DNA of 64,000 bases from an uncultured bacterium (GTDB lineage: Bacteria > Patescibacteriota > Dojkabacteria > J137), in NCBI GenBank assembly GCA_963700155.1, contig OY969472.1, positions 2,058-66,057 on the forward strand, written 5' to 3'. The notes beneath the pieces were generated by a model, which ran no database searches, had not been told where the DNA came from, and saw only the letters and a program-made list of their open reading frames with translations. The translations under genes were made by a program, and so were the position numbers. Below, piece after piece: positions 14,443 to 63,970 of the stretch (positions are counted from its first letter, which is position 1; each line of letters opens with the position of its first letter).

Positions 14443-14467
14443 GTCGATAAAGAATATAGAATTTAAA

Positions 14468-14497
14468 GGCGGGGCATTAAAATGCCCCGCCTTTTTT
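14468..14497 (+). terminator. Rho-independent terminator
   Basis: GC-rich perfect hairpin GGCGGGGCAT-taaa-ATGCCCCGCC followed by TTTTTT, 26 nt after the surface-protein stop codon. Confidence 0.8.
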
Positions 14498-17596: not shown

Positions 17597-18064
17597 ATGA
17601 TTGTTCGAGAACTACTATCTCAAGATATAGAACATATCATTAATCCTGCACAACAGATGTATTTGGATCATGATTTAAAGGAGCAAGAGCTTTTTACACC
17701 AAATTCTTTTGAACCCGAAAGAATTAAAGAATATTTTCTTAATACTTTAAATAATAAATTTCAAAAAACTTTTGTCGCAGAAGAAAATGGTGAAGTTTTA
17801 GGATTTATTAGATGTGAAATAAAAGAAACTCCAAGATTTTATAAAGAAAGAAAAGTTGGATTCACAGATGATTTGGTTGTAATTAAAAAATATCAAAGAA
17901 CTGGAGTAGGGACAAAATTAAAAAAGAAAGCTGAAGAATGGTTTAAAAAAAAAGATATTAAGCTTTTAGAATGTAAGATCTATGAATGGAACATACCTTC
18001 TGCTAAACTATCAGAGAAATTAGGTTACAAAAAGACCTTTTCATATTATTATAAGCATATTTAA
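17597..18064 (+). CDS. GNAT family N-acetyltransferase
   Basis: Acetyl-CoA binding motif QRTGVGTKL. The 155-aa length fits. Confidence 0.7.
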   Translation: MIVRELLSQDIEHIINPAQQMYLDHDLKEQELFTPNSFEPERIKEYFLNTLNNKFQKTFVAEENGEVLGFIRCEIKETPRFYKERKVGFTDDLVVIKKYQRTGVGTKLKKKAEEWFKKKDIKLLECKIYEWNIPSAKLSEKLGYKKTFSYYYKHI

Positions 18065-19877: not shown

Positions 19878-20318
19878 TTATCGACTACTTTGTTATATAT
19901 GTGATACTATTTCAGTTATTTTGATCAAACTATATTAACATTTTATTTTGACATTTTATTAAATTCAACTGAAGTATAGGTCCCATAAATCACTAATAGT
20001 AAAGGAATTACTGAATATCTTTTACAATTCGAAGATAAGATATAAAAGGATTGAACTTTCCAGTTAAACTTGACTTAATTTCATAATTTTCTAATCGAAT
20101 TATTTATGGATATCCACGATAGATAGAAAAAACTTCATATGAAATTGCATTATTTTAAAAAATAATGCGTTACGGTATTGATACAATCTCTATTTATAAT
20201 TCAAAAATGTATACTAAAACTAAATTTTCTTATAGAAAACAGTTTTATACTTATTGTCACCAAAAATAAATATCAAATATAATTGAAGAAGAAAACTTTA
20301 GAATGTTTTTTGTATGTT

Positions 20319-20362: not shown

Positions 20363-21667
20363 ATGTTTATTTGTTCTAATTGTGGAAAAATTTTTACAAA
20401 ATGGCAAGGACAATGTGATAGTTGCGGGAAATGGAATACAATAATTGAAAACCCAAATATAGTAGAAAAAGGTAAATCTAATAGGAAAAAAAATACCTCA
20501 AACGCAAAACCTGTAAAACTCAAAGATATTGATAATAAAAATACAGCAAACCGAAAAGGTTATCTTAAAACTGGAATTAATGAATTCGATAATACAATAG
20601 GAGGCTCATTAGTTCCAGGTCAGGTGATTCTTCTTGCAGGCTCACCAGGTGTTGGTAAAAGTACTTTAGCCTTACAAATTACTCAAGCATTATCAAACCA
20701 AAATGTAAATATTTTATATGTTGCTGGTGAAGAATCACCCGAACAAATTAAACAAAGAGCAGATAGACTTGGTTTAAACTTAAATAACGTTTATTTTTTA
20801 CCTGAGAGTAATATAAGAAGTGTTGAAAACTACGTTTCTTCACATAGAGATAAAATTGATATTGTATTTATAGATTCAATACAAACAATGTATGAACCCT
20901 CATCAAATTCAAGTTCTGGTTCAGTTTCTCAAGTCTCTGAATCTACAAATACGATCACAAATTTTGCAAAAGGTTTCGGAATAACGACTTTTATTATTGG
21001 TCATATTACGAAATCAGGAGATATCGCAGGACCTATGATATTAGAACATATGGTCGATACAGTACTGTTTTTTGAAGGTGAAAGAAGGTTTGAGTTTAGG
21101 ATTTTAAGAGTTGAAAAAAACAGATTTGGTCCAACAGATGAAGCTGGAATATTTAGAATGACTCAAAAAGGACTTGAGGAGGTCAAAGATACTAAGGAAT
21201 TATTAAAAATTAATAAGGAACAGTCCAGTGGCTCTGCTTATAGTATTGTACTTGAAGGAAGTCGTCCTGTAGTGGTTGAGATTCAAGCTTTAGCAACAAA
21301 AACTTATTTTACAAATCCACGAAGGACGACTTCCGGTTTTGATACAAATAGACTTTATATTCTTCTTGCAATTATCGATAAAAAATTAAAGCTTAAAACT
21401 TGGGAATATGACGTTTATGTAAACATAACCGGAGGTTTAAAAGTTTCAGACCCTGCTGTCGATTTAGCAGTTATTCAAGCAATAATTTCATCAATAAAAG
21501 ATACAATTATACCAAAAGATAATATTTACTTTGGAGAGGTAGGACTCACTGGTGAAGTTAGGAAAGTATTCTTAGAGGATAAACGAGTAAAAGAAGCTAA
21601 AAGACTTGGATTTGAAAACTTATTTTCTTCTAAAACTATAAAAAATATTCAATCATTAAAGTTTTAA
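20363..21667 (+). CDS. radA: DNA repair protein RadA/Sms
   Basis: N-terminal C4 zinc finger (CSNCG...CDSCGKW), Walker A motif GSPGVGKSTL, KNRFG motif, and a C-terminal Lon-like domain. Confidence 0.9.
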   Translation: MFICSNCGKIFTKWQGQCDSCGKWNTIIENPNIVEKGKSNRKKNTSNAKPVKLKDIDNKNTANRKGYLKTGINEFDNTIGGSLVPGQVILLAGSPGVGKSTLALQITQALSNQNVNILYVAGEESPEQIKQRADRLGLNLNNVYFLPESNIRSVENYVSSHRDKIDIVFIDSIQTMYEPSSNSSSGSVSQVSESTNTITNFAKGFGITTFIIGHITKSGDIAGPMILEHMVDTVLFFEGERRFEFRILRVEKNRFGPTDEAGIFRMTQKGLEEVKDTKELLKINKEQSSGSAYSIVLEGSRPVVVEIQALATKTYFTNPRRTTSGFDTNRLYILLAIIDKKLKLKTWEYDVYVNITGGLKVSDPAVDLAVIQAIISSIKDTIIPKDNIYFGEVGLTGEVRKVFLEDKRVKEAKRLGFENLFSSKTIKNIQSLKF

Positions 21668-30625: not shown

Positions 30626-30741
30626 AAATCATATTTTATAAACAATTTTTTGATTATATAACGAGAAATATGAAATTGGTATGAAAAACTATCTCTTTAT
30701 TGAAAATATAAGTACTATAAATTATAATAATCATGCTCTAA

Positions 30742-30979
30742 GCCGAATATAGTAAAATGGTCATTTAAAGTGATGCTTTTGAAAAAAGCATTTAAGAACA
30801 TGTTTATTCTTAACTTACAATGACCGATCTTAGTAGTTTTACAATTAACGCGGGTATAGTATATCGGTCATTTAAAGTTATGCTTTTGAAGAAAGCATTT
30901 AAGAAAAAGTTTGTTCTTTACTTGCAATGACCGATCTTAGTAGCTTTACAATTAATGCGGGTATAGTATATCGGTCATT
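30742..30979 (+). repeat. tandem direct repeat of about 107 bp (two full units plus one degenerate unit). Each unit ends with a copy of the first 23 nt of tRNA-Gly.
   Basis: The units begin at about 30759 and 30867. The third unit, from 30973, runs into the genuine tRNA. Each unit contains the palindrome ATGCTTTTGAA(A/G)AAAGCAT and the inverted copy CAATGACCGATC of the tRNA D-region TATATCGGTCATT. The two full units are more than 90% identical. Confidence 0.75.
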
Positions 30980-31028
30980 ATATTGGTTTTCCAAACCAAG
31001 GAGGCGGGTTCGATTCCCGCTACCCGCT
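30957..31028 (+). tRNA. tRNA-Gly (anticodon TCC)
   Basis: Manual fold: acceptor stem GCGGGTA/TACCCGC, D-loop containing GG, anticodon stem TTGGT/ACCAA with loop TTTCCAA (U33 and anticodon TCC), 4-nt variable loop, T-arm GCGGG-TTCGATT-CCCGC, and discriminator T followed by TTTTT. Confidence 0.8.
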
Positions 31029-31090
31029 TTTTTCATAAAACTCTTTCCTGGTAAGCAATGTAATTTCTACTAGTAATGGGCTGATCGAAC
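31015..31090 (+). repeat. att-like direct repeat R0: the tRNA-Gly 3' end plus about 60 nt of downstream flank
   Basis: ACCCGCTTTTTTCATAAAACTCTTTCC...ACTAGTAATGGGCTGATCGAAC is repeated with about 75% identity at 33487-33579. Confidence 0.6.
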
Positions 31091-32397
31091 TAATTAGGAA
31101 AAATCTCAGTTGAACCTTCAATAATTTTCACTGTAGAATTATTTTCAAATATAAATTTAAGTTCCTCTCCAGCCCAACTATAATCCTCTTCTTTTCCTAT
31201 CAAAAATGTTTGATCAGTTTTATGTTTATAATAACTGAAACCATTCATTGGAGTTTCACTGTTTAAATAGATGCAAATTAAACCATTATTAAACTGAGTT
31301 ACATACTCATCGGTTCTCTTATTTGAATATTTTCCTTTTAATTTACTGAGCTCATCATTATTTTCATCATCCTTAAAATTATTTTTAACATATAGCCATA
31401 TTGCATGGATTGAATTAGCTATTGTATTTGTCCAGCTATCCATGGAGTTTGTCAGTACTACTATCCCAATATCATTCTCGTTATCAATAAGTATTTGTGA
31501 AGAATAACCATTGAAAGAACCTCCATGACCATTTACTAAAATATTCGAGTTATGCCAAGTTTCATATCCGTAACCATATTGTAAATCACTATCTCTTGAC
31601 GTTCTTACTTTTCTCATTTCTTCTAAACTATTTTTACTCAATTTAACTGGATTTAAATTTTCTCTCACAAATTTAGATAAATCCTCCACACTAGATATAA
31701 AACCAGTGGAGGCTGAAAATGCTTTAGTCTGTACATTATTTAATGGTTCATCTGAGTGCAAACTTTTTCTTTTATAAGGAGTACAAATTCCAGTTATACT
31801 TGAATCTTCCAAGTCAGAATAAGTATTTTTCATTTCAAGAACAGATAGAAAATCTTTTGAAAATTCTACAAAGGATTTTATAGTAATTTTTTCGATTATC
31901 AAGCCTAAGATTGCATATCCTAAATTTGAGTATTTAAATTGCTCCATTGGTGCATATATCTTAATATCCTTTTTTAATTCTTCAAGTACAAATTCTTTAT
32001 CAGGAAAATTATCATCTTCCCAACATAAAGTATTACCATCTGATTTAATACCTGATTGATGACTCAGTAATTGCCTAATAGTAATATTTGAAATATTTGA
32101 ATTTATTTCTTCAAAATATTTATTTAACTTATCCTCTAAAGACAACTTATCTTCTTCTAAAAGTTTAAAAATCATATTTGCTGTAAACATCTTTGAAACA
32201 GAGGCTACCCTATACATACTTTTAGTATTCGATTCAGTTTTATTCATTAAATTGCTATATCCGTAGCTATTAGAATAAATATTGTTTCCCCCATTAACAA
32301 GTGAGATTGTAATACTGGGAATATTTTCAGTTTTCCTAAAGTGATCCAACCAAACATTTATAAGCTCTATTGCTTTTTCTTGAGATTTACTACCCAT
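31090..32397 (-). CDS. beta-lactamase-fold serine hydrolase (class C beta-lactamase / EstB / D-aminopeptidase family)
   Basis: The motifs SVSK (S-x-x-K), YSN and HGG occur at appropriate spacing in a 435-aa protein. Confidence 0.75.
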   Translation of the reverse strand: MGSKSQEKAIELINVWLDHFRKTENIPSITISLVNGGNNIYSNSYGYSNLMNKTESNTKSMYRVASVSKMFTANMIFKLLEEDKLSLEDKLNKYFEEINSNISNITIRQLLSHQSGIKSDGNTLCWEDDNFPDKEFVLEELKKDIKIYAPMEQFKYSNLGYAILGLIIEKITIKSFVEFSKDFLSVLEMKNTYSDLEDSSITGICTPYKRKSLHSDEPLNNVQTKAFSASTGFISSVEDLSKFVRENLNPVKLSKNSLEEMRKVRTSRDSDLQYGYGYETWHNSNILVNGHGGSFNGYSSQILIDNENDIGIVVLTNSMDSWTNTIANSIHAIWLYVKNNFKDDENNDELSKLKGKYSNKRTDEYVTQFNNGLICIYLNSETPMNGFSYYKHKTDQTFLIGKEEDYSWAGEELKFIFENNSTVKIIEGSTEIFPN

Positions 32398-32476
32398 TTT
32401 TTTAATTTAATATCTATCAAAGAATTTTATCATTAAATCATTGTAAAGCTCTAGAATATAATTTTAGTTAATTTAA

Positions 32477-32488
32477 CCATAACCCGCT
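32477..32488 (+). repeat. att-like remnant R1 (CCATAACCCGCT)
   Basis: Short degenerate copy of the tRNA-Gly 3' end (TACCCGCT), sharing the core found in R2-R4. Confidence 0.4.
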
Positions 32489-32567
32489 TTCTGTGATTGT
32501 TGTCCGATATTCTTCTCAATTTGCCATTCTATATCTAAACTTACTATTGTTACTAATGAAGAAGATA

Positions 32568-32596
32568 TTGACTTTCTTATATAACCAAGATATAAT
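32568..32596 (+). promoter_or_regulatory. near-consensus sigma70-type promoter (TTGACT-17-TATAAT)
   Basis: The -35 box is at 32568-32573 and the -10 box at 32591-32596. About 40 nt downstream is a GGAGGG ribosome-binding site placed 6 nt before ATG 32646. Confidence 0.6.
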
Positions 32597-32645
32597 GTAT
32601 ATACGGTATGAAGCATTAAGCTTCTAACTATATGGAGGGTACAAA

Positions 32646-32729
32646 ATGCCTGACACAACCAAAAGTGGTGGAAACAGTCCCAAGGGCGGTGGTCCTAAAT
32701 CGCCGGGTCCAGGCCCGAAGCAAGGGTAA
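32646..32729 (+). CDS. micro-ORF encoding a 27-aa Gly/Pro/Lys-rich peptide (MPDTTKSGGNSPKGGGPKSPGPGPKQG). It could alternatively be a GC-rich small RNA.
   Basis: Strong RBS GGAGGG, an ATG start, a TAA stop, and local GC far above the genome background. It is followed 13 nt later by a perfect GC-rich hairpin. Confidence 0.4.
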   Translation: MPDTTKSGGNSPKGGGPKSPGPGPKQG

Positions 32730-32742
32730 CTAACTCCATCAC

Positions 32743-32765
32743 GGGGCGACACAATGTGTCGCCCC
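32743..32765 (+). terminator. perfect GC-rich hairpin (GGGGCGACAC-aat-GTGTCGCCCC) with no U-tract
   Basis: 10-bp perfect stem with a 3-nt loop, in a genome that otherwise lacks GC-rich stretches. Confidence 0.45.
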
Positions 32766-32892
32766 AAACAACCCCAACAAAAACATTTTGAAAGATATTT
32801 GAAATTCATAACTCCTAATATCAATAAAATACCAAAATCGGATTATCCAGAGACATTAAATATTTGGATATTGTCAGAAAACCGAGTTGTTA

Positions 32893-32918
32893 GTTCGAAC
32901 TTCGGTCCATAACCCGCT
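32893..32918 (+). repeat. att-like remnant R2 (GTTCGAACTTCGGTCCATAACCCGCT)
   Basis: Degenerate copy of the tRNA T-loop and 3' end. It is nearly identical to the start of R3. Confidence 0.5.
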
Positions 32919-33018
32919 TTTGCTTCTAGAATCATTTCCCAATGAGCATTTTGATAACTATTCTAGCCAAAAAATAAATGATATAATAAAAATCATATAA
33001 ATTATTAGTTTATAACAT

Positions 33019-33357
33019 ATGAATAGAGATGAAACTCCTACAGTCGCTGATGCCGTAGATGCTACGCGAGAGAGATATAATAAGGAACGTTCTACAAGTT
33101 ATAAGGTAGGGCAAACTTTAACAATACCTGAAGGCACAAGAATTATAGTGGAAGGAAAGGGGATGATATTGCCAGTTGAGGTAGAGGCGGTCGTAAAACA
33201 TATAGAATATGATGATTATTCATTGGAAATGGCGGAGTCACAATTAGTACCCGACGATAACAATAACTTAGATTTCCCTAAAATTACTTTTAAACTTAAA
33301 GGTTATGAACGTGGTGAAACAGTGAAATTATTTCAGTTTCGTTTACCTCGAGGATAG
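33019..33357 (+). CDS. hypothetical protein, higher-GC islet gene
   Basis: 112-aa ORF with GC clearly above the genomic background. It is flanked by att-like remnants R2 and R3. Confidence 0.4.
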   Translation: MNRDETPTVADAVDATRERYNKERSTSYKVGQTLTIPEGTRIIVEGKGMILPVEVEAVVKHIEYDDYSLEMAESQLVPDDNNNLDFPKITFKLKGYERGETVKLFQFRLPRG

Positions 33358-33486
33358 CCTCTCAAAAAAGACAGTTTAGGTTCTAAATAGAGTAGCCAAT
33401 TCTTAAGGCAAATATGGTTTTGAATGAGTTAAGTACGCATTTGAAGATTAGATCCACATGTATTATCTAATGTACTTGTACGAGCA

Positions 33487-33579
33487 GTTCGGTTCGAACT
33501 TCGGTCCATAACCCGCTTGTGTCATAAAATTCTTTCCCATTAACCATTATATTTTCAACTAGTAACGGTCTGATCGAAC
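33487..33579 (+). repeat. att-like direct repeat R3 (a copy of the tRNA 3' end and downstream flank, cognate to R0)
   Basis: GTTCGGTTCGAACTTCGGTCCATAACCCGCTTGTGTCATAAAATTCTTTCC...ACTAGTAACGGTCTGATCGAAC aligns with 31015-31090. Confidence 0.6.
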
Positions 33580-33622
33580 CAAATTTGATATAATCCAAAT
33601 AAATAAATTTACATATATTTAT

Positions 33623-34423
33623 ATGGAGAAAGAATGCATACCTGAAGGATTAAGCGAGGGTGAATATTTTAAAAGAATTATAGACATTTTTAGCAGTCAA
33701 GAAATAGTTAGAGAACATGTAATTAAAAATCACGATGATAACCTTTGGTGGCCTCAAAAAGTTAAGGATCCAAGAAAGAGATTACTATTTGCAGGATTAT
33801 CAACTAGGGTTTCATATAACATGATTGACCATTATCGCTCAGTTATAGATGAACTCGATGCTTACTCCTACGAAGATATAGTAAATTTACCTGTTGAAGA
33901 TTTAATAAAAATTGTAGGGAGATTAGGACTAGGTAATACTAGGACTAAATATATTCACTCAATGATTAAATTCATTCAACTTCATGATACGGAATTATCC
34001 TCTTATTCAAATTCAGATTTAATTAAATTGATTTCTGAAGAAGTTGATGGAGCATCGTATAAGGTTGCACAGTGCTGCGTGTTATATTCGCGAGGTTACC
34101 ATTGCGGAGTTATGCCTGTTGATAGTGGAATGAAAGATATGCTGCTCCCATGTATCGGATTCAATCTCAGTAATGGTGCAATTGGCCATGAAGAAGCTCG
34201 ATTGGAGCTTGAGAGATTAGTTTCAGAAGTAGATTTAAGACCAATATTAGAGAAAAATAATTATTTGGATTATATAAATATACCTGAAGGTGCAGATTTA
34301 ACTTGGTGGACACACTTAGTACTTATTTACTACAAGAGATTCTTTTGTAATAAACATAATCCATCAATCTGCCCTTTAGCAAATACTTTTAAATTAAGAG
34401 AATCATGTAAAGAGGAACTATGA
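33623..34423 (+). CDS. Ogg-like HhH-GPD DNA glycosylase/lyase (8-oxoguanine glycosylase family)
   Basis: LGLGNTRTKY matches OGG1 LGLGYRARY. VDGASYKVAQCCVLYS matches PGVGTKVADCICLMA, with the catalytic Lys conserved. PVDSGM matches PVDVHM, with the catalytic Asp conserved. It ends with TGA in an ATGA overlap with the next gene. Confidence 0.65.
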   Translation: MEKECIPEGLSEGEYFKRIIDIFSSQEIVREHVIKNHDDNLWWPQKVKDPRKRLLFAGLSTRVSYNMIDHYRSVIDELDAYSYEDIVNLPVEDLIKIVGRLGLGNTRTKYIHSMIKFIQLHDTELSSYSNSDLIKLISEEVDGASYKVAQCCVLYSRGYHCGVMPVDSGMKDMLLPCIGFNLSNGAIGHEEARLELERLVSEVDLRPILEKNNYLDYINIPEGADLTWWTHLVLIYYKRFFCNKHNPSICPLANTFKLRESCKEEL

Positions 34424-34900
34424 TAATACTAGAAGGTTTGGATGGGACAGGTAAAAGTACCCTTTCAGAAAAATTAAAACAATTTGGATATTCAAATTTA
34501 TATTTTGCACATGACCCAGAAAATAAAGATATCTATGGGAAATATTTAAATATATTAAAAGGTGGAAACTTACAAAAATTAATTTTAGACCGTTCATTCA
34601 TAAGTGAATTTGTTTATGGGAACGTACTTAGAGGTGGAAGTAGACTGAGTGAATCTCAAATACAAACTCTTGCAAAAAATTATGCTCAGAAAAGTGGAAG
34701 GATAATTTATTTGGTTGCACCTTATAACACCCTAGTCAAAAGAAGAAAATAAAGATTTGCTAATTCTCCAAAAGAATTATAAGGAACTAAATGATTCGTA
34801 TGAATACATAATGAAATCATTAAAAAATTTTATAAGGATATATAAATTTGATACTAAACTAAAGAGCACAGAACAAATTGTAAAAGACTTAGACTTTTTA
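34420..34900 (+). pseudogene. Tmk-like P-loop kinase interrupted by a -1 frameshift in an A-rich run
   Basis: The Tmk P-loop ILEGLDGTGKST is present. Frame 1 stops at 34750-34752 after 110 aa. The reading frame continues in the -1 frame (EENKDLLILQKNYKELNDSYEYIMKSLKNF...) to a TAG at about 34900. The shift maps to AAAAGAAGAAAATAAAG. Confidence 0.5.
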
Positions 34901-34910
34901 TAGAAATCAT

Positions 34911-35711
34911 ATGACTACTGATATTGTTTTCGCAGGTAACATCTCAAGGGATAAGATTTCTTGTATGGATAGTATTTACAGAGAGGTTTGGGGTGGGAGT
35001 TCACTTAATTCTTCATTAGTATGTAGGGTGGTGAGTAATAAAGGTATCGGATTGATTACAGCATTTGGTAATGACTTTGATAGAAATTTACTTTCAAAAA
35101 ATAGAATACAGATTGAGAATTCATTTGTTAGTAGAAAGAGTAATGCTTTTTTGATAAATGAAAGAAAAGATACATTTACTCTGGAAGAACCTCCTTATCT
35201 AAATTACAATAATATACCCAATATTAACACCAATATATTACACGTTTCCTTTAGGAGAGGTGTCCCTATTGAAAGAATCTTAGACTCAAAAGGAGTTAAC
35301 TTTAAATCTTTATCAATTGATGTGATGATTCATAGTATTAAAGATTATCTTCCATTGTTCCAAAAATATAAAGATGCTATAAATTTTGCTTTTTGTAACT
35401 CCTCTGAGTATAGAATTATTAAAGACTATCTTGAACCATCTGCAAATATTCTAGTGACAGATAGTGGTAAGGATGTAACCTATTTCAATGGCGAAACTAA
35501 GAAAGTATTTAGAGTTATTAATGTAGATAGTAGCAAGGTAGTATCAACTACTGGTGCTGGTGATTGCTTTATTGGTGGCTTTTGGGGTTCTTTTCTTACT
35601 AATGATTCATTTGATAATTCTATAAATTTAGGAATAAAATTAGCATCAGATTCTGTAAAATATTGTGGAGTCGAAGATTTTATAAATAATAGTAATTTAC
35701 TAAAACATTAA
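34911..35711 (+). CDS. PfkB/ribokinase-family carbohydrate or nucleoside kinase
   Basis: C-terminal TTGAGDCFIGGF (the GAGD ATP-binding motif) and a ribokinase-fold N-terminus. Confidence 0.75.
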   Translation: MTTDIVFAGNISRDKISCMDSIYREVWGGSSLNSSLVCRVVSNKGIGLITAFGNDFDRNLLSKNRIQIENSFVSRKSNAFLINERKDTFTLEEPPYLNYNNIPNINTNILHVSFRRGVPIERILDSKGVNFKSLSIDVMIHSIKDYLPLFQKYKDAINFAFCNSSEYRIIKDYLEPSANILVTDSGKDVTYFNGETKKVFRVINVDSSKVVSTTGAGDCFIGGFWGSFLTNDSFDNSINLGIKLASDSVKYCGVEDFINNSNLLKH

Positions 35712-35728
35712 TTTTTAAGACTAAAATA

Positions 35729-36028
35729 ATGAGTAAAAAACAGAACTCGGTTCAAAAACAAATCTGGCAAAATAAATTAGACAAAGGATTTAATACAGAA
35801 AATGTTGATAAAGAATTCTGCTTTGCTTATGGAGAACTTGGTGAAGCATATAATGCCTACAGAAAAGGTTTAGAAGATTTAGGTGATGAATTAGCTGATG
35901 TGGCTATTTACCTTTATGCATTATCAGAAATGCTAGGTTTTGATTTAGACAATGAAGTTACAAAGAAATTGGCAAAAAACAAAGCTCGTAAATATGAAAA
36001 AAAGAACGGAGTTTTACTAAAAATTTAA
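35729..36028 (+). CDS. MazG-like nucleoside triphosphate pyrophosphohydrolase (small all-alpha NTP-PPase)
   Basis: EFCFAYGELGEAYNAY...ELADVAIYLYALSEMLGFDL matches the MazG-domain EExxE/D metal-binding pattern. Confidence 0.75.
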   Translation: MSKKQNSVQKQIWQNKLDKGFNTENVDKEFCFAYGELGEAYNAYRKGLEDLGDELADVAIYLYALSEMLGFDLDNEVTKKLAKNKARKYEKKNGVLLKI

Positions 36029-36034
36029 ATTACT

Positions 36035-36061
36035 GGTTTGAACTTCGCTCCATAACCCGCT
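36035..36061 (+). repeat. att-like remnant R4 (GGTTTGAACTTCGCTCCATAACCCGCT)
   Basis: Degenerate copy of the tRNA 3' end. The flank that follows (TTTTTCAAAACC...) resembles the flank after the genuine tRNA. Confidence 0.5.
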
Positions 36062-36305
36062 TTTTCAAAACCTTCAATTCATTTTACAAACAAAAGAACC
36101 GCTCAGGTTAGATTTTTACAAAAAGCGGACAATTATATTATAAACGTCACAATAATAAACCAAGAACCTTCGTAGACTATTCATCTTTGATATATATATT
36201 TATTAAACACTTACTATCATTACAGATACATTCAATTATATATAATTTTTGCATATTTTTATTCTCAAATGTATAATAAATAAAATATCTATTAAAATAC
36301 TAATT

Positions 36306-37991: not shown

Positions 37992-38014
37992 CAAATCTAA
38001 TTAAAAACTATTCT

Positions 38015-38042
38015 AAAACCATTGGTAAGTGCCAATGGTTTT
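38015..38042. terminator. bidirectional hairpin terminator between convergent genes
   Basis: AAAACCATTGG-taagtg-CCAATGGTTTT forms a perfect 11-bp stem. It is flanked by A-runs on the left and T-runs on the right. Confidence 0.6.
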
Positions 38043-38188
38043 ATTATTATGAAAGATAGTAGACTTAACATTCTTTCATTATTTTAATTTAGACGAATAA
38101 TTTATATAGAATTATATTCGTTTATATTAAAAATTTTTAAATATAACATTGAGCTGTATCATTTTGTTCAGAAAGTTTTCCAGTTTAA

Positions 38189-39688: not shown

Positions 39689-42600
39689 ATGGAAGAAAAT
39701 ACTGAGAATAAAAATATTATTCTTCTTAACGACGATCTTACTATACGTATTGTTCTTAAGAACTTACTACATCAATATTTTGATAAAAATGTAAAAATAT
39801 ATTCATCTGCCGAAGCATTACAAGGTCTTGGTTTAATTTTCATCTTAAAGTCGGATATAGTTATTGTAGATAAGTCACTTCCTAAGCATAATGGCTTAAA
39901 TATTGTCGACTATATAAAATCCAATGAAAAATTAAAAAAAGTAAAGACAAAAGTTATTGTTCTTGGTGAGGGGAAAGAAGATTCCTCAATACCAAATGAA
40001 TATAAATATATTGATACAACAGATGAGAATTTCCCTGGAACATTAGTAAATTATGTAAAAACAGTTATTCCAGAGTATGTTTCTAAAATTAATAAAGTAA
40101 ATTCTTTAATTTCTAAGTTAGGTAAAAATGTTGTTAAATTCTCTAATAAATCAGATAAAATAATAGCCAATGATAAGGGAAGATTTTTCCCAATGACTCC
40201 TTGGTTAAAATGGGTGTATTATCAATTTTTATCTAGTGTTAATCTTACCTTGTTTTCTTTTCTAGTAGGAAAATTCCCTGATGAGAACAAGGAACAACAG
40301 AAATTTGATATCGAATCCAACTTCAGGAAAAATCTTCCTGGAATAGCGATTGGACTTACAATGTTGTTTTTAACAAGTATAACTGCCTTTGCAATTGGAG
40401 GTACAGTGATAACATCATCATTAGTTTTAACTCAAAATGTACAATCAGCTACAGCAAGAACCTGGGATGGAGGCGGTTCGCAGGACTCATGTGGAGGTAA
40501 TCTAGGAGATGAGAATAAATGGAGCTGTGCTGAAAACTGGAATCCCGATGGAGTTCCTGGGAGTAGCGATACAATTACTTTCAACGGGACTAGTACAAAG
40601 AATTCTGTTATTGATGCAAGTTTTGCAGGAACAGTAAATAATATTACGATAGCGTCTGGCTATACTGGAACAATTACTCAAGCTCGTTCATTAACCGCAA
40701 GTGGTACTTATTCTCAGGCTGCTGGAACATTTAATAGCGAAAACCAGTCTTTAACCGTTGGCTTTTTTACTCTATCTGGTGGAAGTTTTACTGCTCCATC
40801 AACAAACATGACTATATACAGTATGATGACGGTAACTGGTTCACCAAGTTTTAATGCAAATAATGGTACTGTTAATTTCACCTTAGGATATTTAACTATA
40901 TCTTGCGGGAATATTACATTTAATAAGGTAACGATTACTAATGCTGGTTATGTCGTTGTTGAAAGTGATTGTAATCTACCTCTTGGAAATAATCCTACTT
41001 TGTCTTGGGATTATCGTCAAAATTTCTTATTATCAGGTACACTTACTGGCTCTGGAACTCTTACAGCTACTAGCGCAACCACAAGTGGAAAATATTTTTA
41101 CCTTGAGCCTGGTTCAGCATTAGTTGGATTTAGTGGGTTAAATGTCGGGAATTTTTATGTTGCAAATACAGATGCAGATTTTAGTAGTTATACTACTTTC
41201 AGTGTCTCTGGGTATGTAGGACAAAGTTCAGGAACATTTAAAATGCCTACTATTACTGGAACTAATGGTATTCAAGATCTTACACTTTCGGGTGGGACAT
41301 TCAGAGCTCCACCAGGTAATTTAAATATTAATCATGAGATAAACATTAGTGCATCTGCAGCTCCGGGTTTTGATGCAAATGGAGGAACTATAAATTTTAT
41401 AAGTGCATCCAGTAGATATTTAACCTGCAACAATGCTGTGTTTAATAAAGTAACTATTAATACAAATCAATTTGTGGTTGTTTATGCTGGATGTAATTTT
41501 CCATTAGGAAATAATCCGACAATAACATGGTCAGGTAGTCAAAACTTTATTTTAGATGGCACTTTGTCTGGAACAGGTACATTGACAACAGTCGGAGGAA
41601 CAACTAGTGGAAAACAATTTTTTTTAGATCCGGGCTCTTCAGTTACTGGATTCACTAATTATAGTATTGGAGGATATTTCACAATCAGTAGTGGAGTTAC
41701 ATTTGATTCTACTGCTCTTGGTGGAACTTTAAGTGTTGCAAGTGGATATACAATCTCTATGGCATCAGGAACAGTTAGTTTGAACGGGACTGCAAATCCG
41801 ACAATAGGCACACTTGGCATTAGTGGGGGCACATTTATTGGACCACCTTCAAATTTAACAATAAATGGGAATCTGAGTATATCAGGAGGAGCTTTTACTG
41901 CTCCAACAGGGAGTATGAATGTTTATGGGAATATTTCAATAAGTGGAAGCTCAACATTTGATGCAAATGGTGGCACAATAACTCTATTAGGAACAAATAC
42001 TCAGACAATGGGGTGCAATAATGTAACATTAAATAAGGTTGTTATAAATAAAGGGAATATTGGTGCTGATAACTCAGTAACCATAGGGAGCGACTGCAGT
42101 CTCCCATTAGGGAACGACCCAACAGTCATAGTAAATTTAAATTCATTTAATTCAAAAAAAGGAGATCTAATATTAAACGGATCTCTGAGTGGTACAGGAA
42201 CTCTTTCAACTGGTAATGGTTCTGGTGGAAATATAACGCTTGGATCAACCGGATCTATCAATGGATTTAGTGGATTTAACTCACCATATATGGGTCTAAT
42301 AGTATCTGGAACCACCCTGGATATGAGTGGATATACAACATTTATGATGGCAGGTAGTAGCCATTTAACTAACTTATCTGTTCAAAGTGGAGGAACTTTA
42401 AAATTACCAACACCAACTGGTTCAGTAACAGTATCTACAATAAGTACAACTGGAGGAAGTACATTTATTGGAGCTGGGGGAAGTATATATGATAACGGTA
42501 GCCTTTCAATAAGTGGGGGAACATTTGTAGCACCATCGGGTACTCTAAGTCTTGTTGGAAATATTTCAATAAGTGGGAATCCAACTTTTGATGCAAATGG

Positions 42601-45600
42601 TGGCACAATTACACTAGGAGGAAGTAATAATCAAACATTGGCATGTAATAATGTAACATTCAATAAAGTAGTTATAAATAGAGATAATGTTGGGTCCGAT
42701 AATTCTGTAACCATAGGAAGTGACTGCAATCTCCCATTAGGGAATAACCCAACAGTTGTAGTAAATTTAAACTCATTTAATTCAAAAAAAGGAGATTTAA
42801 TACTTAATGGTTCATTGAGTGGGACTGGGACACTTACCATGGGAAATGGATATGGCGGTACATTAACCATGAACACAGGTAGTTCTATATCAAATTTTAG
42901 TTCCATATTTTCAAATAAAACTGCTCAGTTACTGCAAATTTCAGGAGCAAATGAAGATTTAAGTACTTTATCTTCAATGACTTGGAGTGGAGGAATAACA
43001 ATTACTTCTGGAAGTTTAACTTTACCTGATACAGCAAGCATTGGAGCATTAACAGTTAATGGAGGAACTTTAAATTCGACTAATGGAAGTTTAAATGAAT
43101 CTGGAACACTAACACTTTCATCTGGAACATTAAATGCCCCAACAGGGAATCTTAATTTGGCAGGTGCTATATCTTTCTCTTCGACCGGTACTTTCAATGC
43201 TGGAAGTGGGACAATTAATTTAAAAGGAGGAACAGTAACCCATAGCTGTAATAATAAGACTTTTAATCTTGTGACATTAAATAATACCGCAACTCAAACA
43301 GTGAATAGCAACTGCTCTTTTCCTTTAGGGAATGATCCTATAATAACTAACGGAATAACATTAGATAGTGGAACATTAAGTGGAAGTGGGACAATTACAA
43401 TGACTACTGGAATTCTGACTTTAAATACTGGCTACCATCTGACAGGATTTAGTGGATTTACGGGAACCTCAAATGGTCTAAGGACAAGTGGGGCTAGTAA
43501 TACAGTTGATTTCTCAAGTTATTCAACATTTGACTTAAACAGTTCGCTTACAGTCGATACTGGTGCAAGCTTAACATTTCCAAATTCTGGAGCTAACTTT
43601 AATATTACTTCACTTACTTTAAGTGGGAATGGAAGCATATTAAATGCATATAATGGTAATATGAACATTTCGGGTAGTCTTACTTTTTCTGATAACTCAA
43701 CATTTAATGCCGGTAGTGGTTCAATTACTTTTAATGGTTCAACCGCAACACATTCCTGTAATAATGCTACTTTTAACCTTGTTATCTTTAATAATTCAGG
43801 AACACAAACTGTTTCAAGTAACTGTAGTTTTCCATTAGGAAACAATCCTACTGTTGCAAATTCTTTAAATGTTAGTGGTGGTACATTAACTGGAAGTGGA
43901 ACATTTAACATGACTACTGGTACTCTAACTCTAACAAATGCAGCATTCTCAGGATTTATAGGTTTTAATGGAGGCATATTAATAGTAAGTGGCGCTTCTT
44001 CAACAGCAGATTTTAGTAGTTATACAACATTTGATACAACCGGAACAGTTCAAGCTCAAAGTAGCGCCACTTTAACTTTACCCAATAATGCTAACATCGG
44101 AGGAGATTTACAAGCATCTAGTACTATTAACGCTCCTTCAGGAAATTTATATGTCGGTGGATCAATTACAGGTGGCAGTAATTTTCATCATAATAATGGA
44201 ACAGTGATTTTAGACGGTACTAATCAAACTATTTCTACAGCAGCGTTGACTTTTTATAATCTAACCAAGATAGTTCCAACTGGATCTTCTCAAACGTTAA
44301 CATTCCCTGCAGGAACATCATCCACACAAACTATCGCTGGAGATCTTATACTACACGGTTATGATACATCAGCAAGATTAAATTTAAGAACATCATCTGG
44401 AACAACATACTTTCAAATCAATGCTCAAGGATCAAGAGATTTATTATATCTTGATATTAAAGATTCAAATAATATTAATACTGCAGCAATGCAAATGGGT
44501 GGGTCGGGAAGCCAAGACAGTGGACATAATATAGCTTGGAACTTCAGTAGTGCAACTCCAAATGATCCTTCAAATCTTGGACCAGCAAGTGTTATCAGCG
44601 CTGTTTATACTACAACTTTAAAACCAACTTTTAGCTTTACTATCTCAGACCCGAATCCATTAGATACTGTAAAGTATAATTTTCAAGTCGATGATAATAG
44701 TGACTTTAGCTCTCCTGTAATAGATTATTCTACTGTATTAGGATCCCAAGGATCTAAAAGTTTTACAGTTGGACAATCTGCAGGGACAGGTACGTATAAT
44801 GTTGGATCCAGCGGACAGTCATTAACTACTGGTGGATATTACTGGAGAGTAAATGCAACTGATAATAATGGATTAATTTCAAACTATACTACTGCTAATG
44901 GTGGAGCTATTGCGTTTTATATTGATTCTGTGGCACCCGCTACATTTACTCCTACTCTAAACGTAACTAGTCCTACTCAAAACAGAACACCTACAGTAAC
45001 TTTCAATACAACTGACAATGTTGGAGTTGACCATTATCAGGTAAAAGTTGATTCAGGAAGTTTTTCAACTCATACTAGTCCATATACAATTCCAACTTTA
45101 AATGCAGGAGATCATACAATTACTGTTAGAGCTTATGATACAACTTCAAATTATACTGATGGGGTTGTAATGATAACAGTAGAAGTTAATCCACCAGTAG
45201 CATTTTCACCAACATTAAACGTATCTAACCCTACAAATAACACTTCTCCGATTCTTACATTTAGTACAACTGATGGTGCAGGAATAGATCACTATGAAGT
45301 AAAAATAAATTCTGGAAGTTTTTCTACTCAATCATCACCTTATCAGTTACCAACATTAACTCAAGGAAGTTATACATTCACGGTAAGAGCATACAATATT
45401 AATGATGTATACACTGATGGAAGTGTAAGTACTTATATAGATACGAGTGCACCAAACAATTTTACTCCTACTTTGAATGTGGGAAATTATACAAATAATC
45501 AAACTCCGACTTTAAGTTTTGTTACTGCAGATAATCACCAGCTTGGTCACTATGAAGTTGATATTGATGGGGGTGGCTTCACGGCCCAGACTAGTCCATA

Positions 45601-48600
45601 TGTGTTACCAACATTAAGTGAAGCCGCCCATTCGATAACAGTTATAGCATATGATGCTGCAGGAAATTCAAAAACTGGAACAGTGGTGAATGTGACTGTT
45701 GACATTACAGCCCCAGCTTCTTTTACGCCAACATTAGATGTAACTTCACCTACAAGCAACACAAGACCAACAGTCACATTCACCACAACAGATAACAATG
45801 TAGTTAATCATTATGAAATAAAAATCGACTCTGGAAGTTTTACTACTCAATCATCACCATATCAGCTTGATCCGCTTGATTATGGTGATCATACAATTAC
45901 TGTAAGAGCTTTTGATATTGCGGGAAATTATACAGATGGAGATATAATAGATTTATTTGTAGATAACAATGGGCCTGATGCTTTTATTCCTACATTAAAT
46001 GTAGTTTCACCTACAACAAATACTTCTCCTACAGTTTCATTTTCTACAACAGATGATACTGGAATAGATCATTATGAAGTTAAAGTTGATTCAGGGAGCT
46101 TTTTAGAACAGGAAAGTCCTTATACTGTAGATGAGTTAACTGAAGGTTCACATACAATAACTGTTAGAGCTTTTGATACTTTAGGAAACTATACTGATGG
46201 AAATGTAATAATTGTAATTGATTTAACCAAACCTAACGCATTTTCACCAACATTAAATACTGGAAGTTTTACTTCTAATACAAGACCAACAGTAAGTTAC
46301 GGTACAACAGATAATGTTGGAATTAACCATTATGCTGTCAAATTAGATTCAGGTAGTTTTGGTACACATTCTAGTCCTTATCAATTACCGACTTTATCAG
46401 AAGGCTCTCATTCGATAACAGTCAGAGCTTATGATAGTGCTGGCAATTACAGAGATGGAACAACTTTAGCTGTAACAATTGACTTAACAGTTCCAAATAA
46501 CTTTACCCCAACTTTAAATGTAACATCACCTACTATAAATACGACTCCAACAGTTTCATTTAGTACTACAGATAACTTTGGAATTAACTACTATAGAGTT
46601 CAGGTAGATAATGGCAGTTTTTATACTACAACAAGTCCTTATCAAGTACCTCCTTTATCAAATGGAGATCATACAATTACAGTAAGAGTTTATGATAAAG
46701 CATCTAACTATAAAGATGGATCAGTCAACGTTACTGTAAATAGAACCTCACCAGATCCATTTACACCAACATTAAATGTTACTAGTCCAACTAATGATTC
46801 AACACCAATTTTAAGCTTTAGTACTACTGATGCAATGACATCAATAGATCATTATGAAGTTAAAGTAGACAATGGAAGTTTTTCTATTCAGACTAGTCCA
46901 TATCAACTACCAAATTTATTTCAGACAAACTTAAATACTCCACCTCATACAATTACTGTAAGAGCTTACAATACTATTGATAATTTCACAGATGGCACTG
47001 TAAGTTTATACGTCGATACTACTTTACCAACTATTAACTATTCTGCACCTATAAAGATTAAAAATTCAGATATTACAAATACTACCTTCTCAATTAGTGA
47101 TAACTTAGGAATTAACAAAGATAATACATCTATTACAGGTGGTGTGTTTACATGCAATCAAGGATCAGTTATTGGTGTTGGATGTAGTGGAACAATTACG
47201 AATAGCGGGACTGTTAGTATTACAGCTACAGATAATGCAGGAAGTTCAAGAACTGTGAATGTTACTGGATATATTATAGATCAGGTTGCCCCTGAAATTA
47301 CAATTACAGCGCCAACAAAGAATTCTGCTACAACAATAACAGACACTACTCTTTTTGTTACTGATAATATCCAAATCACTGTTGATAAAGTAATAGCTGT
47401 ATCAGGCGGTACAATCATTTGTACCCAAACCAGTCAGACACGTGTAGATTGTACCGCCTCTGTTTCAGACACCGGTGATTTAGTAATAAATGCTAATGAC
47501 ACAGCAGGAAACGCTGATGCTTTAACTGAAAGTGGTTATGTGGTAACTGCTACACCACCAGCACCTTTCCAGCCATCACTTAACACTACAGCTTATACTA
47601 ATGATACTGCTCCAATATTATTCTTTTCTACAACAGATGCAGATGGGATAGATCATTATGAAGTAAAAATAAATAATGGATCATTTACAACACAAATTAG
47701 TCCATATCAACTCCCTATTCAATCTGCAGGATTTAAAACTATAACAGTTAGAGCTTACGATACTCAAGGTAACTTTAGAGACGGTTCAATTGGTGTGACA
47801 ATAGACACTTCATCTCCAGCAGCTTTTACTCCTATACTTAATGTTTCAAGTCCTACAAATAATACAACACCTATAGTCTCATTCTTCACTACTGATAATA
47901 ATGGAATTGATCATTACGAAGTACAAGTTGATGGAGGATCTTTCAGCACTCAAGTAAGTCCATATCAACTTCCAGAATTAGTTGAAGGAGATCATATTAT
48001 TACGGTAAGAGCATTTAATATTGTTGGAAATTATACTGATGGGAGTGTTGATTTAACAGTGGACTTAACACCACCAGAATCTTTCACACCAATTATTACC
48101 CCTGGAACAATAACAAATATAACAAACCCTGAATTAACTTATTCAACAACTGATAATATTGCAGTTAGTCACTATGAAGTTCAAGTTGACTCTGGGATGT
48201 TCTCAATTCAAGCTAGTCCTTACACTGTTCCAACTGTACCTGAAGGAGATCATACTATGACTGTTGTAGCTTACGATACTGCGGGAAATTCAACAACCGA
48301 AATGGTTGGGGCAATAGTTGATCAAAGTGCTCCTGTAATTAGTTATTCTGCTCCAACTAGAGTCAAAAACTCTAACATAACAAATACAACTATAACTGTA
48401 ATAGATGATGCAGCAATTGATGTTTCAAATGTCACTGCAAGCGGTGTTGGTATAATAAATTGTACTCAAACTTCTAGTACTCGAGTTGATTGTACTTCAA
48501 ACATAGCGAGTTCAGGAACGTTAACAATAAATGCCGAAGATACAGTAGGATATACTTCAAGTGAAGATATTGATGGTTATGTAATTGAAACTATAGCTCC

Positions 48601-51915: not shown

Positions 51916-52389
51916 ATGTTCCAATCAAGAGAAGAAAAAATACAATTAATCTTTGAAAAGTTCGAAAATATCTTTAAAACAATACATAAAAGACGTTTTC
52001 ATCTTCATAAAAATAAACAAAGATTCCCATTTGAAGATTTAAATCTAAGCAGAAGAGAAATTATATTCCTTTTTATTATTGGAAAATCTCAAGATGGAAT
52101 TTCAGTAAAAGATTTATCAAAATTCCAAAGAATAACTTCTGGAGCAGTAACTCAATTTATCGATAGTTTAATTGAAAAAAATCTTGTAAAACGAGAAGAA
52201 GATACTTATGATAGAAGAGTTATTAAAATAAAATTAACTGATTATGCAAAAAGTAAATTCAATAATTTTAAAAAAGGTTATGTAGAATCTTTAGTCCCTT
52301 TTTTCGATAATTTAACAGATGAGGAATTAGATCAATTTATAAATATATTAGAAAAACTTAGATCAAATACTGCAACAGCAGAAGATTAA
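51916..52389 (+). CDS. MarR-family transcriptional regulator
   Basis: 157 aa with a winged-helix segment ISVKDLSKFQRITSGAVTQFIDSLIEKNLVKREEDTYDRRVIKIKLT. Confidence 0.75.
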   Translation: MFQSREEKIQLIFEKFENIFKTIHKRRFHLHKNKQRFPFEDLNLSRREIIFLFIIGKSQDGISVKDLSKFQRITSGAVTQFIDSLIEKNLVKREEDTYDRRVIKIKLTDYAKSKFNNFKKGYVESLVPFFDNLTDEELDQFINILEKLRSNTATAED

Positions 52390-62860: not shown

Positions 62861-63970
62861 TTAATAATTTAGATCAAAATCAGAATACAAAACTAATAAT
62901 TTCCTTCCACTTTCCTTTGCTGAATACTTATTAGCAGTTGCCAAAGCATTATATCTCATAAATTGTAAATCCTCCCAATTTTTATAAATATCTTTAATCT
63001 TATTTATTAACCCATCAATGTTTTCAACAATAAACCCATTTGATTCATTTACTACAACTTCACTTCCACCATTAGAATTGCTGCTAATAATATATACACC
63101 TCTACTCATTGCCTCTAACAGAGTGAACGGCATAGCTTCGCGTATGCTTGGAAGAACATAAATATCTGAATTTGCTAATTCTGCAATAAATTCTTCTTCG
63201 TTATATTTTTTTTGAATAATTTCAACATTAGATAATTCTGAACTAAAATCTTGGTATCCACTTAGTGGTCCAACAATTTTAAAATTATATTGTTGTAGTT
63301 TTGAAGCGGCCTGAATGATCCATTCAGGCCGCTTGACTGGATCAATTCTTCCCATATAAATTATTGAATTCTTTGGTTTAGCATCAATTATATTAGGCTT
63401 ATTTTTCAAAAAAATATCTTTAATCCCATTTGAAATTAATATAGAGTTTTTTAAACCTAAATTTAAAAGATATTTGTTTTCCCATTTACTTATTCTTATT
63501 ACTCTTGAGTATATTTTTAATTCCCACCAACCAATGAATATATCATAAAGCGTATCAATAATTTTCAATAATACTGGTCTCTGCGTATCTTTCTCAAAAG
63601 GAGCATGAGTAGTTAAAAAAATTGTTTTTGAATTTAATTTACCCCAAATTAATGAAAGTAAACTATGAGGATGTCTATATCCATGGGTATGAATAATTTC
63701 AGGATTTACTTTATGTATCTTGCCTAAAAAATTCCAAAACATAGATGTACCGCCAAGTTTAAGAAAAACATTAAACCTATAAATCTTTAATCCTTCATAT
63801 TCTTCATAATCTGAAGACTTATCTTTTGTTCCTTTAATAATGTTTGACGAAAAGATAGAAACATCATAACCATTATCTCGTAATGTAATTGCATCATTGT
63901 AAACACGAGTCCAGATACCACAAGCTGAAGGATAAGAGAATGGACATAATATCAGGACTTTTTTATTCAT
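62861..63970 (-). CDS. GT4-family glycosyltransferase
   Basis: C-terminal EAMPFTLLEAMSRGVYIISS (E-x7-E motif) and the GT-B fold length. Confidence 0.75.
   Translation of the reverse strand: MNKKVLILCPFSYPSACGIWTRVYNDAITLRDNGYDVSIFSSNIIKGTKDKSSDYEEYEGLKIYRFNVFLKLGGTSMFWNFLGKIHKVNPEIIHTHGYRHPHSLLSLIWGKLNSKTIFLTTHAPFEKDTQRPVLLKIIDTLYDIFIGWWELKIYSRVIRISKWENKYLLNLGLKNSILISNGIKDIFLKNKPNIIDAKPKNSIIYMGRIDPVKRPEWIIQAASKLQQYNFKIVGPLSGYQDFSSELSNVEIIQKKYNEEEFIAELANSDIYVLPSIREAMPFTLLEAMSRGVYIISSNSNGGSEVVVNESNGFIVENIDGLINKIKDIYKNWEDLQFMRYNALATANKYSAKESGRKLLVLYSDFDLNY

Follow-up and report, generated by a model that had tools for sequence, protein, structure and literature searches.

A GC-rich element with a candidate structured RNA gene in a repeat-bounded islet downstream of tRNA-Gly in an uncultured Dojkabacteria bacterium

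We analysed a stretch of 64,000 nucleotides (nt), referred to here as the window, from an uncultured bacterium (GTDB lineage Bacteria; Patescibacteriota; Dojkabacteria; J137), comprising positions 2,058 to 66,057 of the forward strand of contig OY969472.1 in assembly GCA_963700155.1, and concentrated upon a short GC-rich element at 32568-32765, in a small islet bounded by direct repeats downstream of a tRNA-Gly gene. A preliminary description of this element had reported a near-perfect promoter (TTGACT-17-TATAAT), a GGAGGG hexamer 6 nt ahead of an ATG, an open reading frame (ORF) of 84 nt and a perfect 10-bp GC hairpin, and upon reading the sequence all four were found where it had placed them. 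The features of the element are as follows, with coordinates given as positions in the window and on the + strand unless stated.

32568-32573, + strand: TTGACT, a -35 hexamer read from the sequence, with a 17-nt spacer to the -10 hexamer TATAAT at 32591-32596
Surroundings of the -10 hexamer: AGATATAAT, near to the TGATATAAT form found upstream of many window genes
32603-32765, + strand: predicted transcript body of about 163 nt, 53% GC, with both of its ends putative
32634-32639, + strand: GGAGGG, a Shine-Dalgarno-like hexamer, 6 nt 5′ of the ATG at 32646
32646-32729, + strand: ORF of 27 codons (84 nt) with the product MPDTTKSGGNSPKGGGPKSPGPGPKQG, ending with the stop codon TAA at 32727-32729
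32743-32765, + strand: hairpin GGGGCGACAC-AAT-GTGTCGCCCC, a perfect 10 bp (8 G-C and 2 A-T pairs) with the loop AAU
32766-32790, + strand: C/A-rich tail AAACAACCCCAACAAAAACAUUUUG, nearly without G, mean unpaired probability 0.77

A hairpin like that at 32743-32765 was produced by no shuffled sequence, and the window holds just two further hairpins with at least 8 G-C pairs. The motif ACAACC is common to the C/A-rich tail and to a predicted unpaired stretch at 32656-32661. Elsewhere in the window, a perfect 14-bp hairpin (AAGCGGCCTGAATG-ATC-CATTCAGGCCGCTT, 63304-63334), without a T-tract, lies within a glycosyltransferase ORF (62861-63970, - strand), which is unusual for a coding region at 30% GC.

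The GC content of 32647-32766 is 58.3%, the top value for any 120 nt of the 64 kb (mean 30.1%, standard deviation 5.5%), in agreement with the roughly two-fold local enrichment noted in the preliminary description. The intergenic region holding the element peaks at 61% GC over 100 nt, compared to 19-45% for the 11 further intergenic regions of more than 100 nt, among which the best belongs to the tRNA-bearing region (45%, the tRNA itself being 50% GC) and the remaining regions reach 19-42%. This enrichment is limited to approximately 32630-32775; outside these limits the islet, including the promoter and the 5′ leader, is AT-rich like the host, and a peak so confined between native flanks fits local structural selection better than it fits an imported foreign block. 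In a genome of 29% GC, intergenic GC-rich regions of more than 100 bp were mostly found to be structured RNAs (Meyer et al. 2009, PMC2704228), and such candidates were supported there by conservation and covariation in metagenomes; for GC-rich intergenic structured RNAs of AT-rich genomes, that paper in turn cites Klein, Misulovin and Eddy (2002). The element resembles these RNAs in being sharply bounded within an intergenic region that is otherwise about 20% GC, in a genome of about 30% GC, and in ranking first in the window, above the tRNA, but unlike them (PMC2704228) it has no relative that could be found and it lies in accessory rather than core DNA. More generally, caution is needed in that a GC-rich stretch in an AT-rich genome will yield ORFs and Gly/Pro-rich “peptides” in several frames, whether it is coding or not. 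The second-highest GC peak of the window (52%, 40449-40568) is inside a single + strand ORF of 3636 codons (39689-50599, 34% GC).

Folding of the + strand from 32603 to 32768 gave a minimum free energy (MFE) of -65.3 kcal/mol (z = -4.33), and none of 200 shuffled sequences was equally stable, compared to an MFE of -55.7 kcal/mol (z = -2.09) for the - strand. The strands thus differ by 9.6 kcal/mol, and the strand-specific folding advantage rests on G-U pairs. Without the terminal hairpin the body of the RNA still has z = -2.25. The predicted helices are listed below.

32610-32614 with 32620-32624, + strand: helix 1, a predicted 5′ hairpin, GAAGC pairing with GCUUC
Helix 2, + strand: a predicted weak hairpin, GGGUA pairing with UGCCU, partly sequestering GGAGGG and the AUG
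32665-32672 with 32735-32742, + strand: helix 3, a predicted 8-bp closing stem, GUGGUGGA pairing with UCCAUCAC, pairing probability >0.99
32743-32765, + strand: helix 4, the terminal 10-bp hairpin, pairing probability near 1

In the predicted ensemble the domain closed off by the 8-bp stem has several stems and a length of about 60 nt, with the 10-bp hairpin abutting the closing stem on its 3′ side. The C/A-rich tail that follows could possibly serve as a pairing region or as a rut-like sequence.

Nothing else in the window had been thought to come as close to consensus as the promoter of the element, but this did not hold up, as sites at 20254, 30700 and 51865 score equally (11/12), while dinucleotide shuffles of the window yield a mean of 6.0 sites with this score; the score alone is therefore without significance. 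All four 11/12 sites in the window, however, are intergenic and upstream of + strand genes, which makes them plausible promoters, and the 32568 site belongs to the same class as those upstream of the tRNA-Gly, of the RadA-like gene at 20363 and of the MarR-family gene at 51916. On the antisense strand of the element there is only one promoter-like site and it is weak (9/12).

At its other end, the hairpin at 32743-32765 has the GC-rich stem-loop of an intrinsic terminator, but no U-tract follows it on either strand (the + strand continues AAACAACCCC and the - strand GTGATGGAG), so it is not a canonical intrinsic terminator. The terminator scan did not report it; the canonical terminators of the window, at 14465-14494 and 38014-38043, consist of an A-tract, a stem and a T-tract. 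We infer that the hairpin either stabilises the 3′ part of the RNA or is bound by a protein.

The preliminary description had proposed, as its main reading, a highly expressed Gly/Pro/Lys-rich peptide, and this was assessed against the window's own genes (18,612 codons) as the codon reference. The codons GGC, GGG, CCC, CCG and TCG are rare in those genes (each 4-10% of its synonymous family), but the 27-codon ORF uses them freely. Its G+C at third codon positions (GC3) is 12 of 26, where back-translation of the peptide with window usage gives an expectation of 3.9 (P = 1.4e-4), and its synonymous log-likelihood falls in the lowest 2.5e-5 of simulations. By codon position, 16, 19 and 12 of the 26 (62%, 73% and 46%) are G or C, and three-base periodicity is not significant. 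All six frames of 32630-32745 hold only 0-2 stops in 38 codons, and consequently composition alone leads one to expect an ORF of 84 nt, both antisense ORFs (of 61 and 66 amino acids) and the richness in Gly and Pro (GGN and CCN codons). No frame of the element has a Pfam match and the gene caller of the public collection placed no gene there (L001).

The signals for initiation also differ from those of the host. GGAGGG does stand 6 nt ahead of the ATG, as had been described, but calling it a strong ribosome-binding site sits poorly with this genome, where a Shine-Dalgarno-like motif (GGAG, GAGG or AGGA at -18 to -5) precedes only 1 of 52 long window ORFs. Upstream of many window ORFs there is instead an extended -10 box of the TGATATAAT type that lacks a -35, and in several genes only 5-6 nt separate the end of this box from the ATG, an arrangement suggestive of leaderless mRNAs. 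With a predicted -9.6 kcal/mol, the initiation region of the 27-codon ORF (-30 to +30) exceeds in stability all 51 gene starts tested (mean -3.8, standard deviation 1.9, minimum -8.5 kcal/mol), and the mean unpaired probability of GGAGGG is 0.33, with GGAGGG and the AUG together about 35% unpaired in the ensemble. GGAGGG at 32634-32639 is thus probably part of an RNA helix or a G-rich segment rather than a ribosome-binding site, and the ORF is probably a by-product of GC-rich sequence.

A micro-protein gene led by its Shine-Dalgarno sequence, brought in as a moron-like cassette from a GC-richer donor that uses such sequences by way of a mobile element, or forming part of a dual-function RNA, is therefore unlikely in our view. 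Its product would be a basic, disordered peptide of 27 residues, rich in Gly, Pro and Lys, with two SPK motifs and possibly nucleic-acid-binding. In its favour, the element has a promoter, an ATG at the optimal distance of 6 nt from GGAGGG, a closed ORF and, further downstream, a hairpin, the Shine-Dalgarno, ATG and ORF of at least 20 codons are seldom met together by chance in shuffled sequence (see below), and the repeat-bounded islet makes a foreign origin plausible; but the codon usage is non-native, the host makes almost no use of Shine-Dalgarno sequences, the start is unusually structured, and the GC-rich block reaches past the ORF, whereas its promoter and flanks are native in appearance. 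In a gene from a GC-rich donor, the third codon position is not expected to be the lowest in G+C, yet here GC3 (46%) is below both the first and second positions, the opposite of what such an origin predicts. The peptide is free of hydrophobic residues other than Pro after Met1, and it has no family match or detectable relatives. Morons are defined by having their own promoter and terminator and a deviant GC content, and they lie within prophages (PMC3594210), and the element is like prophage morons in its own promoter-like site, its downstream hairpin, its deviant GC and its horizontally acquired setting, but the hairpin is no canonical terminator, the islet is without phage genes or prophage context, the product would be 27 residues or an RNA, and the core alone deviates in GC. 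A type I toxin was also considered and rejected, as the peptide has no hydrophobic residues after Met1 except Pro and is net positive, and the antisense promoter-like site is the weak one mentioned above.

Taking the composition, the strand-biased stability of the fold, the non-native codon usage and the architecture of the islet together, we tentatively read the region from about 32603 to about 32765-32790 as an orphan, islet-borne gene for a structured small non-coding RNA, accessory to the genome and read from the + strand. The second suggestion of the preliminary description, a structured RNA with spurious antisense ORFs, fits better than its peptide, given the difference in z-score between the strands and the lack of relatives of the 66-residue antisense frame among the proteins searched. 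In the scheme that we propose, RNA polymerase would start about 7 nt past TATAAT (at about 32603) to give a transcript with a protective 5′ hairpin, followed by a small hairpin that would cover GGAGGG and the AUG; the 8-bp helix would then close the multi-stem domain, and the adjacent 10-bp G-C hairpin would stabilise or set the 3′ end of the RNA. The unpaired C/A-rich stretches (ACAACC at 32656 and the 3′ tail) would be the likeliest contacts for a partner RNA or protein. The high G+C would be present because helices need it in a genome of 30% GC, and the 27-codon Gly/Pro/Lys ORF and the antisense ORFs would be side effects of this composition. Transcription, the ends of the transcript, its fold and any function are what we infer here, from the sequence.

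Several results weigh against such an RNA gene. No U-tract marks the 3′ end of the RNA, and a z-score carries little weight when it comes from one sequence only, with much of it here due to a single hairpin. GGAGGG, a 6-nt spacing and an ATG opening a closed ORF of at least 20 codons arose in only 37 of 5000 dinucleotide shuffles of the element (0.7%), and this is the one feature that argues for translation of 32646-32729. The two unpaired C/A-rich stretches paired with the 51 gene starts no better than shuffled seeds did in RNAduplex. Finally, no homologue was found in any collection searched, and hence there is no support from covariation, conservation or family membership. As matters stand the element is a single-sequence candidate, whose practical value is mainly as a target for RNA-seq and Ribo-seq; nothing in the evidence makes it surprising or points to any mechanism more specific than a generic one.

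The searches for homologues were wide. Rfam 15, with its models of signal recognition particle RNA, 6S RNA, transfer-messenger RNA, RNase P, riboswitches and ribozymes, returned at its gathering score only the tRNA-Gly from the whole window, and a permissive search of 32300-33100, to E = 10, added one chance match outside the element; ARAGORN likewise found the tRNA-Gly only, and no transfer-messenger RNA. The 66-residue antisense frame is stop-free and has its wobble positions in common with the sense ORF, which means that degenerate patterns of it cover the synonymous variants of the peptide. That frame had no match among 5.8 billion proteins, nor by phmmer among 1.84 billion representatives, and degenerate DNA and peptide patterns found nothing in species-representative genomes, JGI metagenomes or viral contigs; exact patterns found nothing beyond chance in viral contigs. 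With blastn there was no match in plasmids, and in phages only 26-nt chance matches at E = 0.8. The element is not in the related loci L028, L029 and L030, which include the two nearest relatives (blastn and nhmmer over the retrieved loci). Its only other occurrence is on an identical 4.8-kb contig in run ERR11571143, broken at the repeat, and exact-protein look-ups of three neighbour genes gave this one other sample only, again identical and with contigs that break at repeats. The nearest relatives of the PepF encoded next to the tRNA are only 59-63% identical, and the matches in species-representative genomes (Nitrospirota, Patescibacteria and WWE3 metagenome-assembled genomes) are at most 57% identical, and the lineage is therefore barely sampled. 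The source contig, of 1,140,724 bp and about 30% GC, is probably from a small-genome, AT-rich bacterium, on this evidence possibly of Patescibacteria or of a host-associated lineage.

Known classes of RNA were set aside on other grounds. By-eye comparison with the helix-8 motif of signal recognition particle RNA and with the rod shape of 6S RNA showed that neither fits, and a housekeeping RNA was rejected given the lack of an Rfam match, the accessory location and the absence of the element at the syntenic site in relatives. Assembly GCA_034680565.1 (with contig numbers above 41,000) holds two PepF relatives, L028 and L030 (61% and 59% identical), one on a contig of 1.12 Mb and the other on a contig of 41 kb, which suggests a metagenome-like or host-associated assembly with at least two related small-genome bacteria. 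The L028 contig has repeated long hairpins (17927-18046 and 1064-1110) with GC-rich feet CCCGCCTGCC...GGCGGGCAGG, one of them directly upstream of its tRNA-Gly; these look like a dispersed repeat family of the miniature inverted-repeat transposable element or repetitive extragenic palindromic type, and are unrelated in sequence to the element.

The element occupies the second of four islets that lie in an array directly 3′ of the tRNA-Gly gene.

30957-31028: tRNA-Gly(UCC), found with ARAGORN and Rfam
31029-32489: islet 1, with an ORF of 435 amino acids and beta-lactamase fold on the - strand
32477-32490, + strand: left boundary repeat CCATAACCCGCTTT, identical to 32907-32920
32490-32919 (430 bp): islet 2, with the element and otherwise nothing recognisable
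32893-32922, + strand: right boundary repeat GTTCGAACTTCGGTCCATAACCCGCTTTTG, with more copies at 33492-33521 and 36036-36062
32920-33518: islet 3, with an ORF of 112 amino acids without family
33519-36062: islet 4, with HhH-GPD-like, dNMP-kinase-like, PfkB-like and MazG-like ORFs

The 13-nt core of the boundary repeats, CCATAACCCGCTT, has four exact copies (at 32477, 32907, 33506 and 36050), compared to 0.5 chance matches at up to two mismatches, and three of these extend to the 27-nt GTTCGAACTTCGGTCCATAACCCGCTT (27-30 nt). The insert is bounded by direct repeats that have ACCCGCTT, the last 8 nt of the tRNA, in common with the tRNA-Gly 3′ end, but they do not truly copy the 3′ half of the tRNA, GGTTCGA and ACCCGCTT alone being shared. 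At their starts islets 1 and 4 have homologous arms, about 65 nt long and 81% identical, in which ACTAGTAAyGGkCTGATCGAAC occurs, and a similar motif follows the repeat in the closest relative, L029. This relative retains PepF (63% identical) adjoining its tRNA-Gly and has, at 2571-2603, a 33-nt match to the islet repeat (32/33 identical) about 4 kb from that tRNA, with different genes between; the site is therefore a conserved hot spot of integration or recombination, and the islets are accessory DNA. For the foreign origin proposed in the preliminary description, the one support is the position of the element in a repeat-bounded islet.

Integrative elements leave tandem islands at tRNA genes, bounded by partial repeats of the tRNA 3′ end, as in the tycheposons of Prochlorococcus. 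The array resembles these in that the islets are directly 3′ of the tRNA, with repeats that share its last 8 nt, and in that the site is conserved in L029 with different cargo, but it differs in that the repeat is not a true tRNA 3′-half copy and in that no integrase or other mobility gene was found in the island. Neither the island ORFs nor the 30 window ORFs scanned with Pfam include a recombinase or integrase, PADLOC and PHROGs gave nothing diagnostic on the island ORFs (islet 2 has no phage genes and the PHROG matches of neighbouring islets are generic enzymes), and the repeat, which resembles an attachment (att) site, was not found in the viral or metagenome contigs searched. Islet 4 is a compact nucleotide-metabolism-like gene set, and its kinase-like ORF (34420-34752, 110 amino acids, with a P-loop) has weak N-terminal PADLOC matches to PDC-M51B and VakA.

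A second rival explanation sees in the element an inert remnant, or a site acting at the DNA level, left by an integrative element that has decayed (such as the binding site of a recombinase or repressor, a hairpin of origin type or part of a foreign gene), with its promoter-like and Shine-Dalgarno-like matches coincidental. A 430-bp islet without a recombinase, within an array of remnants bounded by att-like repeats, is in keeping with decay, as are a promoter score that alone is no better than chance and the complete absence of homologues from the collections searched, and the palindrome is perfectly symmetric, as protein-binding and cruciform-forming sites are. A functionless stretch of 58% GC should, however, decay in a genome of 30% GC, yet the 10-bp stem is still without a mismatch; the folding advantage is strand-specific and based on G-U pairs, which a DNA-level site does not need; the promoter-like site is correctly placed and oriented; and neither the Rfam ribosomal RNA models nor Pfam gave any sign of a gene fragment. 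We consider this explanation doubtful.

A cis-acting leader of riboswitch or attenuator type is very improbable, for while the geometry recalls an aptamer with a sequestering helix on its 3′ side (the sensor being the domain within the 8-bp stem, and the 10-bp hairpin the expression platform, hiding in its loop the AUG at 32754 of a 52-codon ORF, 32754-32912, or alternatively the Gly/Pro-rich ORF, with Gly at 9 of 27 codons, as leader peptide), there is no Rfam riboswitch match, a U-tract is absent, no alternative pairing that could bring about attenuation is obvious, the 52-residue product has no family and its ORF terminates inside the boundary repeat (which has an in-frame stop 8 codons upstream in L029 and so is not coding there), and the next solid gene (33019) is past the islet boundary with its own GATATAAT. 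A leader-peptide attenuator in particular was rejected, since the Gly codons are enriched but there is no U-tract terminator, and the islet has no downstream operon.

The structured RNA gene that we favour bears some likeness to known small RNAs. Dual-function RNAs such as RNAIII/hld, SgrS/SgrT and SR1/SR1P are structured RNAs that also carry a short ORF. The element is like them in its length class (about 160-230 nt), its predicted structure and its short ORF preceded by a Shine-Dalgarno-like sequence, but here both RNA function and translation are putative, in a host almost without use of such sequences. RsaE and RoxS are Firmicutes small RNAs whose unpaired C-rich motifs have G-rich Shine-Dalgarno targets. 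The element's predicted unpaired C-rich stretches (CAACCCCAAC and ACAACC) likewise adjoin stable hairpins, but unlike RsaE/RoxS it has no Rfam match, G-rich Shine-Dalgarno targets are nearly absent from the genome, and no target was found among the 51 gene starts.

Beyond this, the element might represent an undescribed class of structured RNA, or a dual-function RNA that also encodes the basic micro-protein with SPK motifs; as the sole cargo of a 430-bp att-bounded islet, either would amount to a mobile cassette of minimal size for an RNA gene, at a hot spot of integration next to tRNA-Gly, but we give this extended proposal little credence. If transcribed and functional, the element would be an accessory small RNA (or an RNA with a micro-peptide) from a lineage with almost no sequenced relatives, and it would show that islets as small as this at tRNA hot spots can have RNA genes as cargo; to our knowledge nothing is known of riboregulation in such lineages.

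The tRNA-Gly gene has a further repeat on its other side. Directly upstream, at 30748-30979, a unit of 107 nt occurs in 2.2 tandem copies (90% matching), and every unit begins with a copy of the first approximately 23 nt of the tRNA. The unit is predicted to fold into a long stem and two hairpins, with ATCGGTCATT pairing with AATGACCGAT, and it has no Rfam match. As the 11/12 promoter-like site at 30700 lies upstream, the units may be transcribed as a structured leader of the tRNA. One such unit is also upstream of the tRNA-Gly in L029 (6645-6745, - strand), with four pairs changed on both sides.

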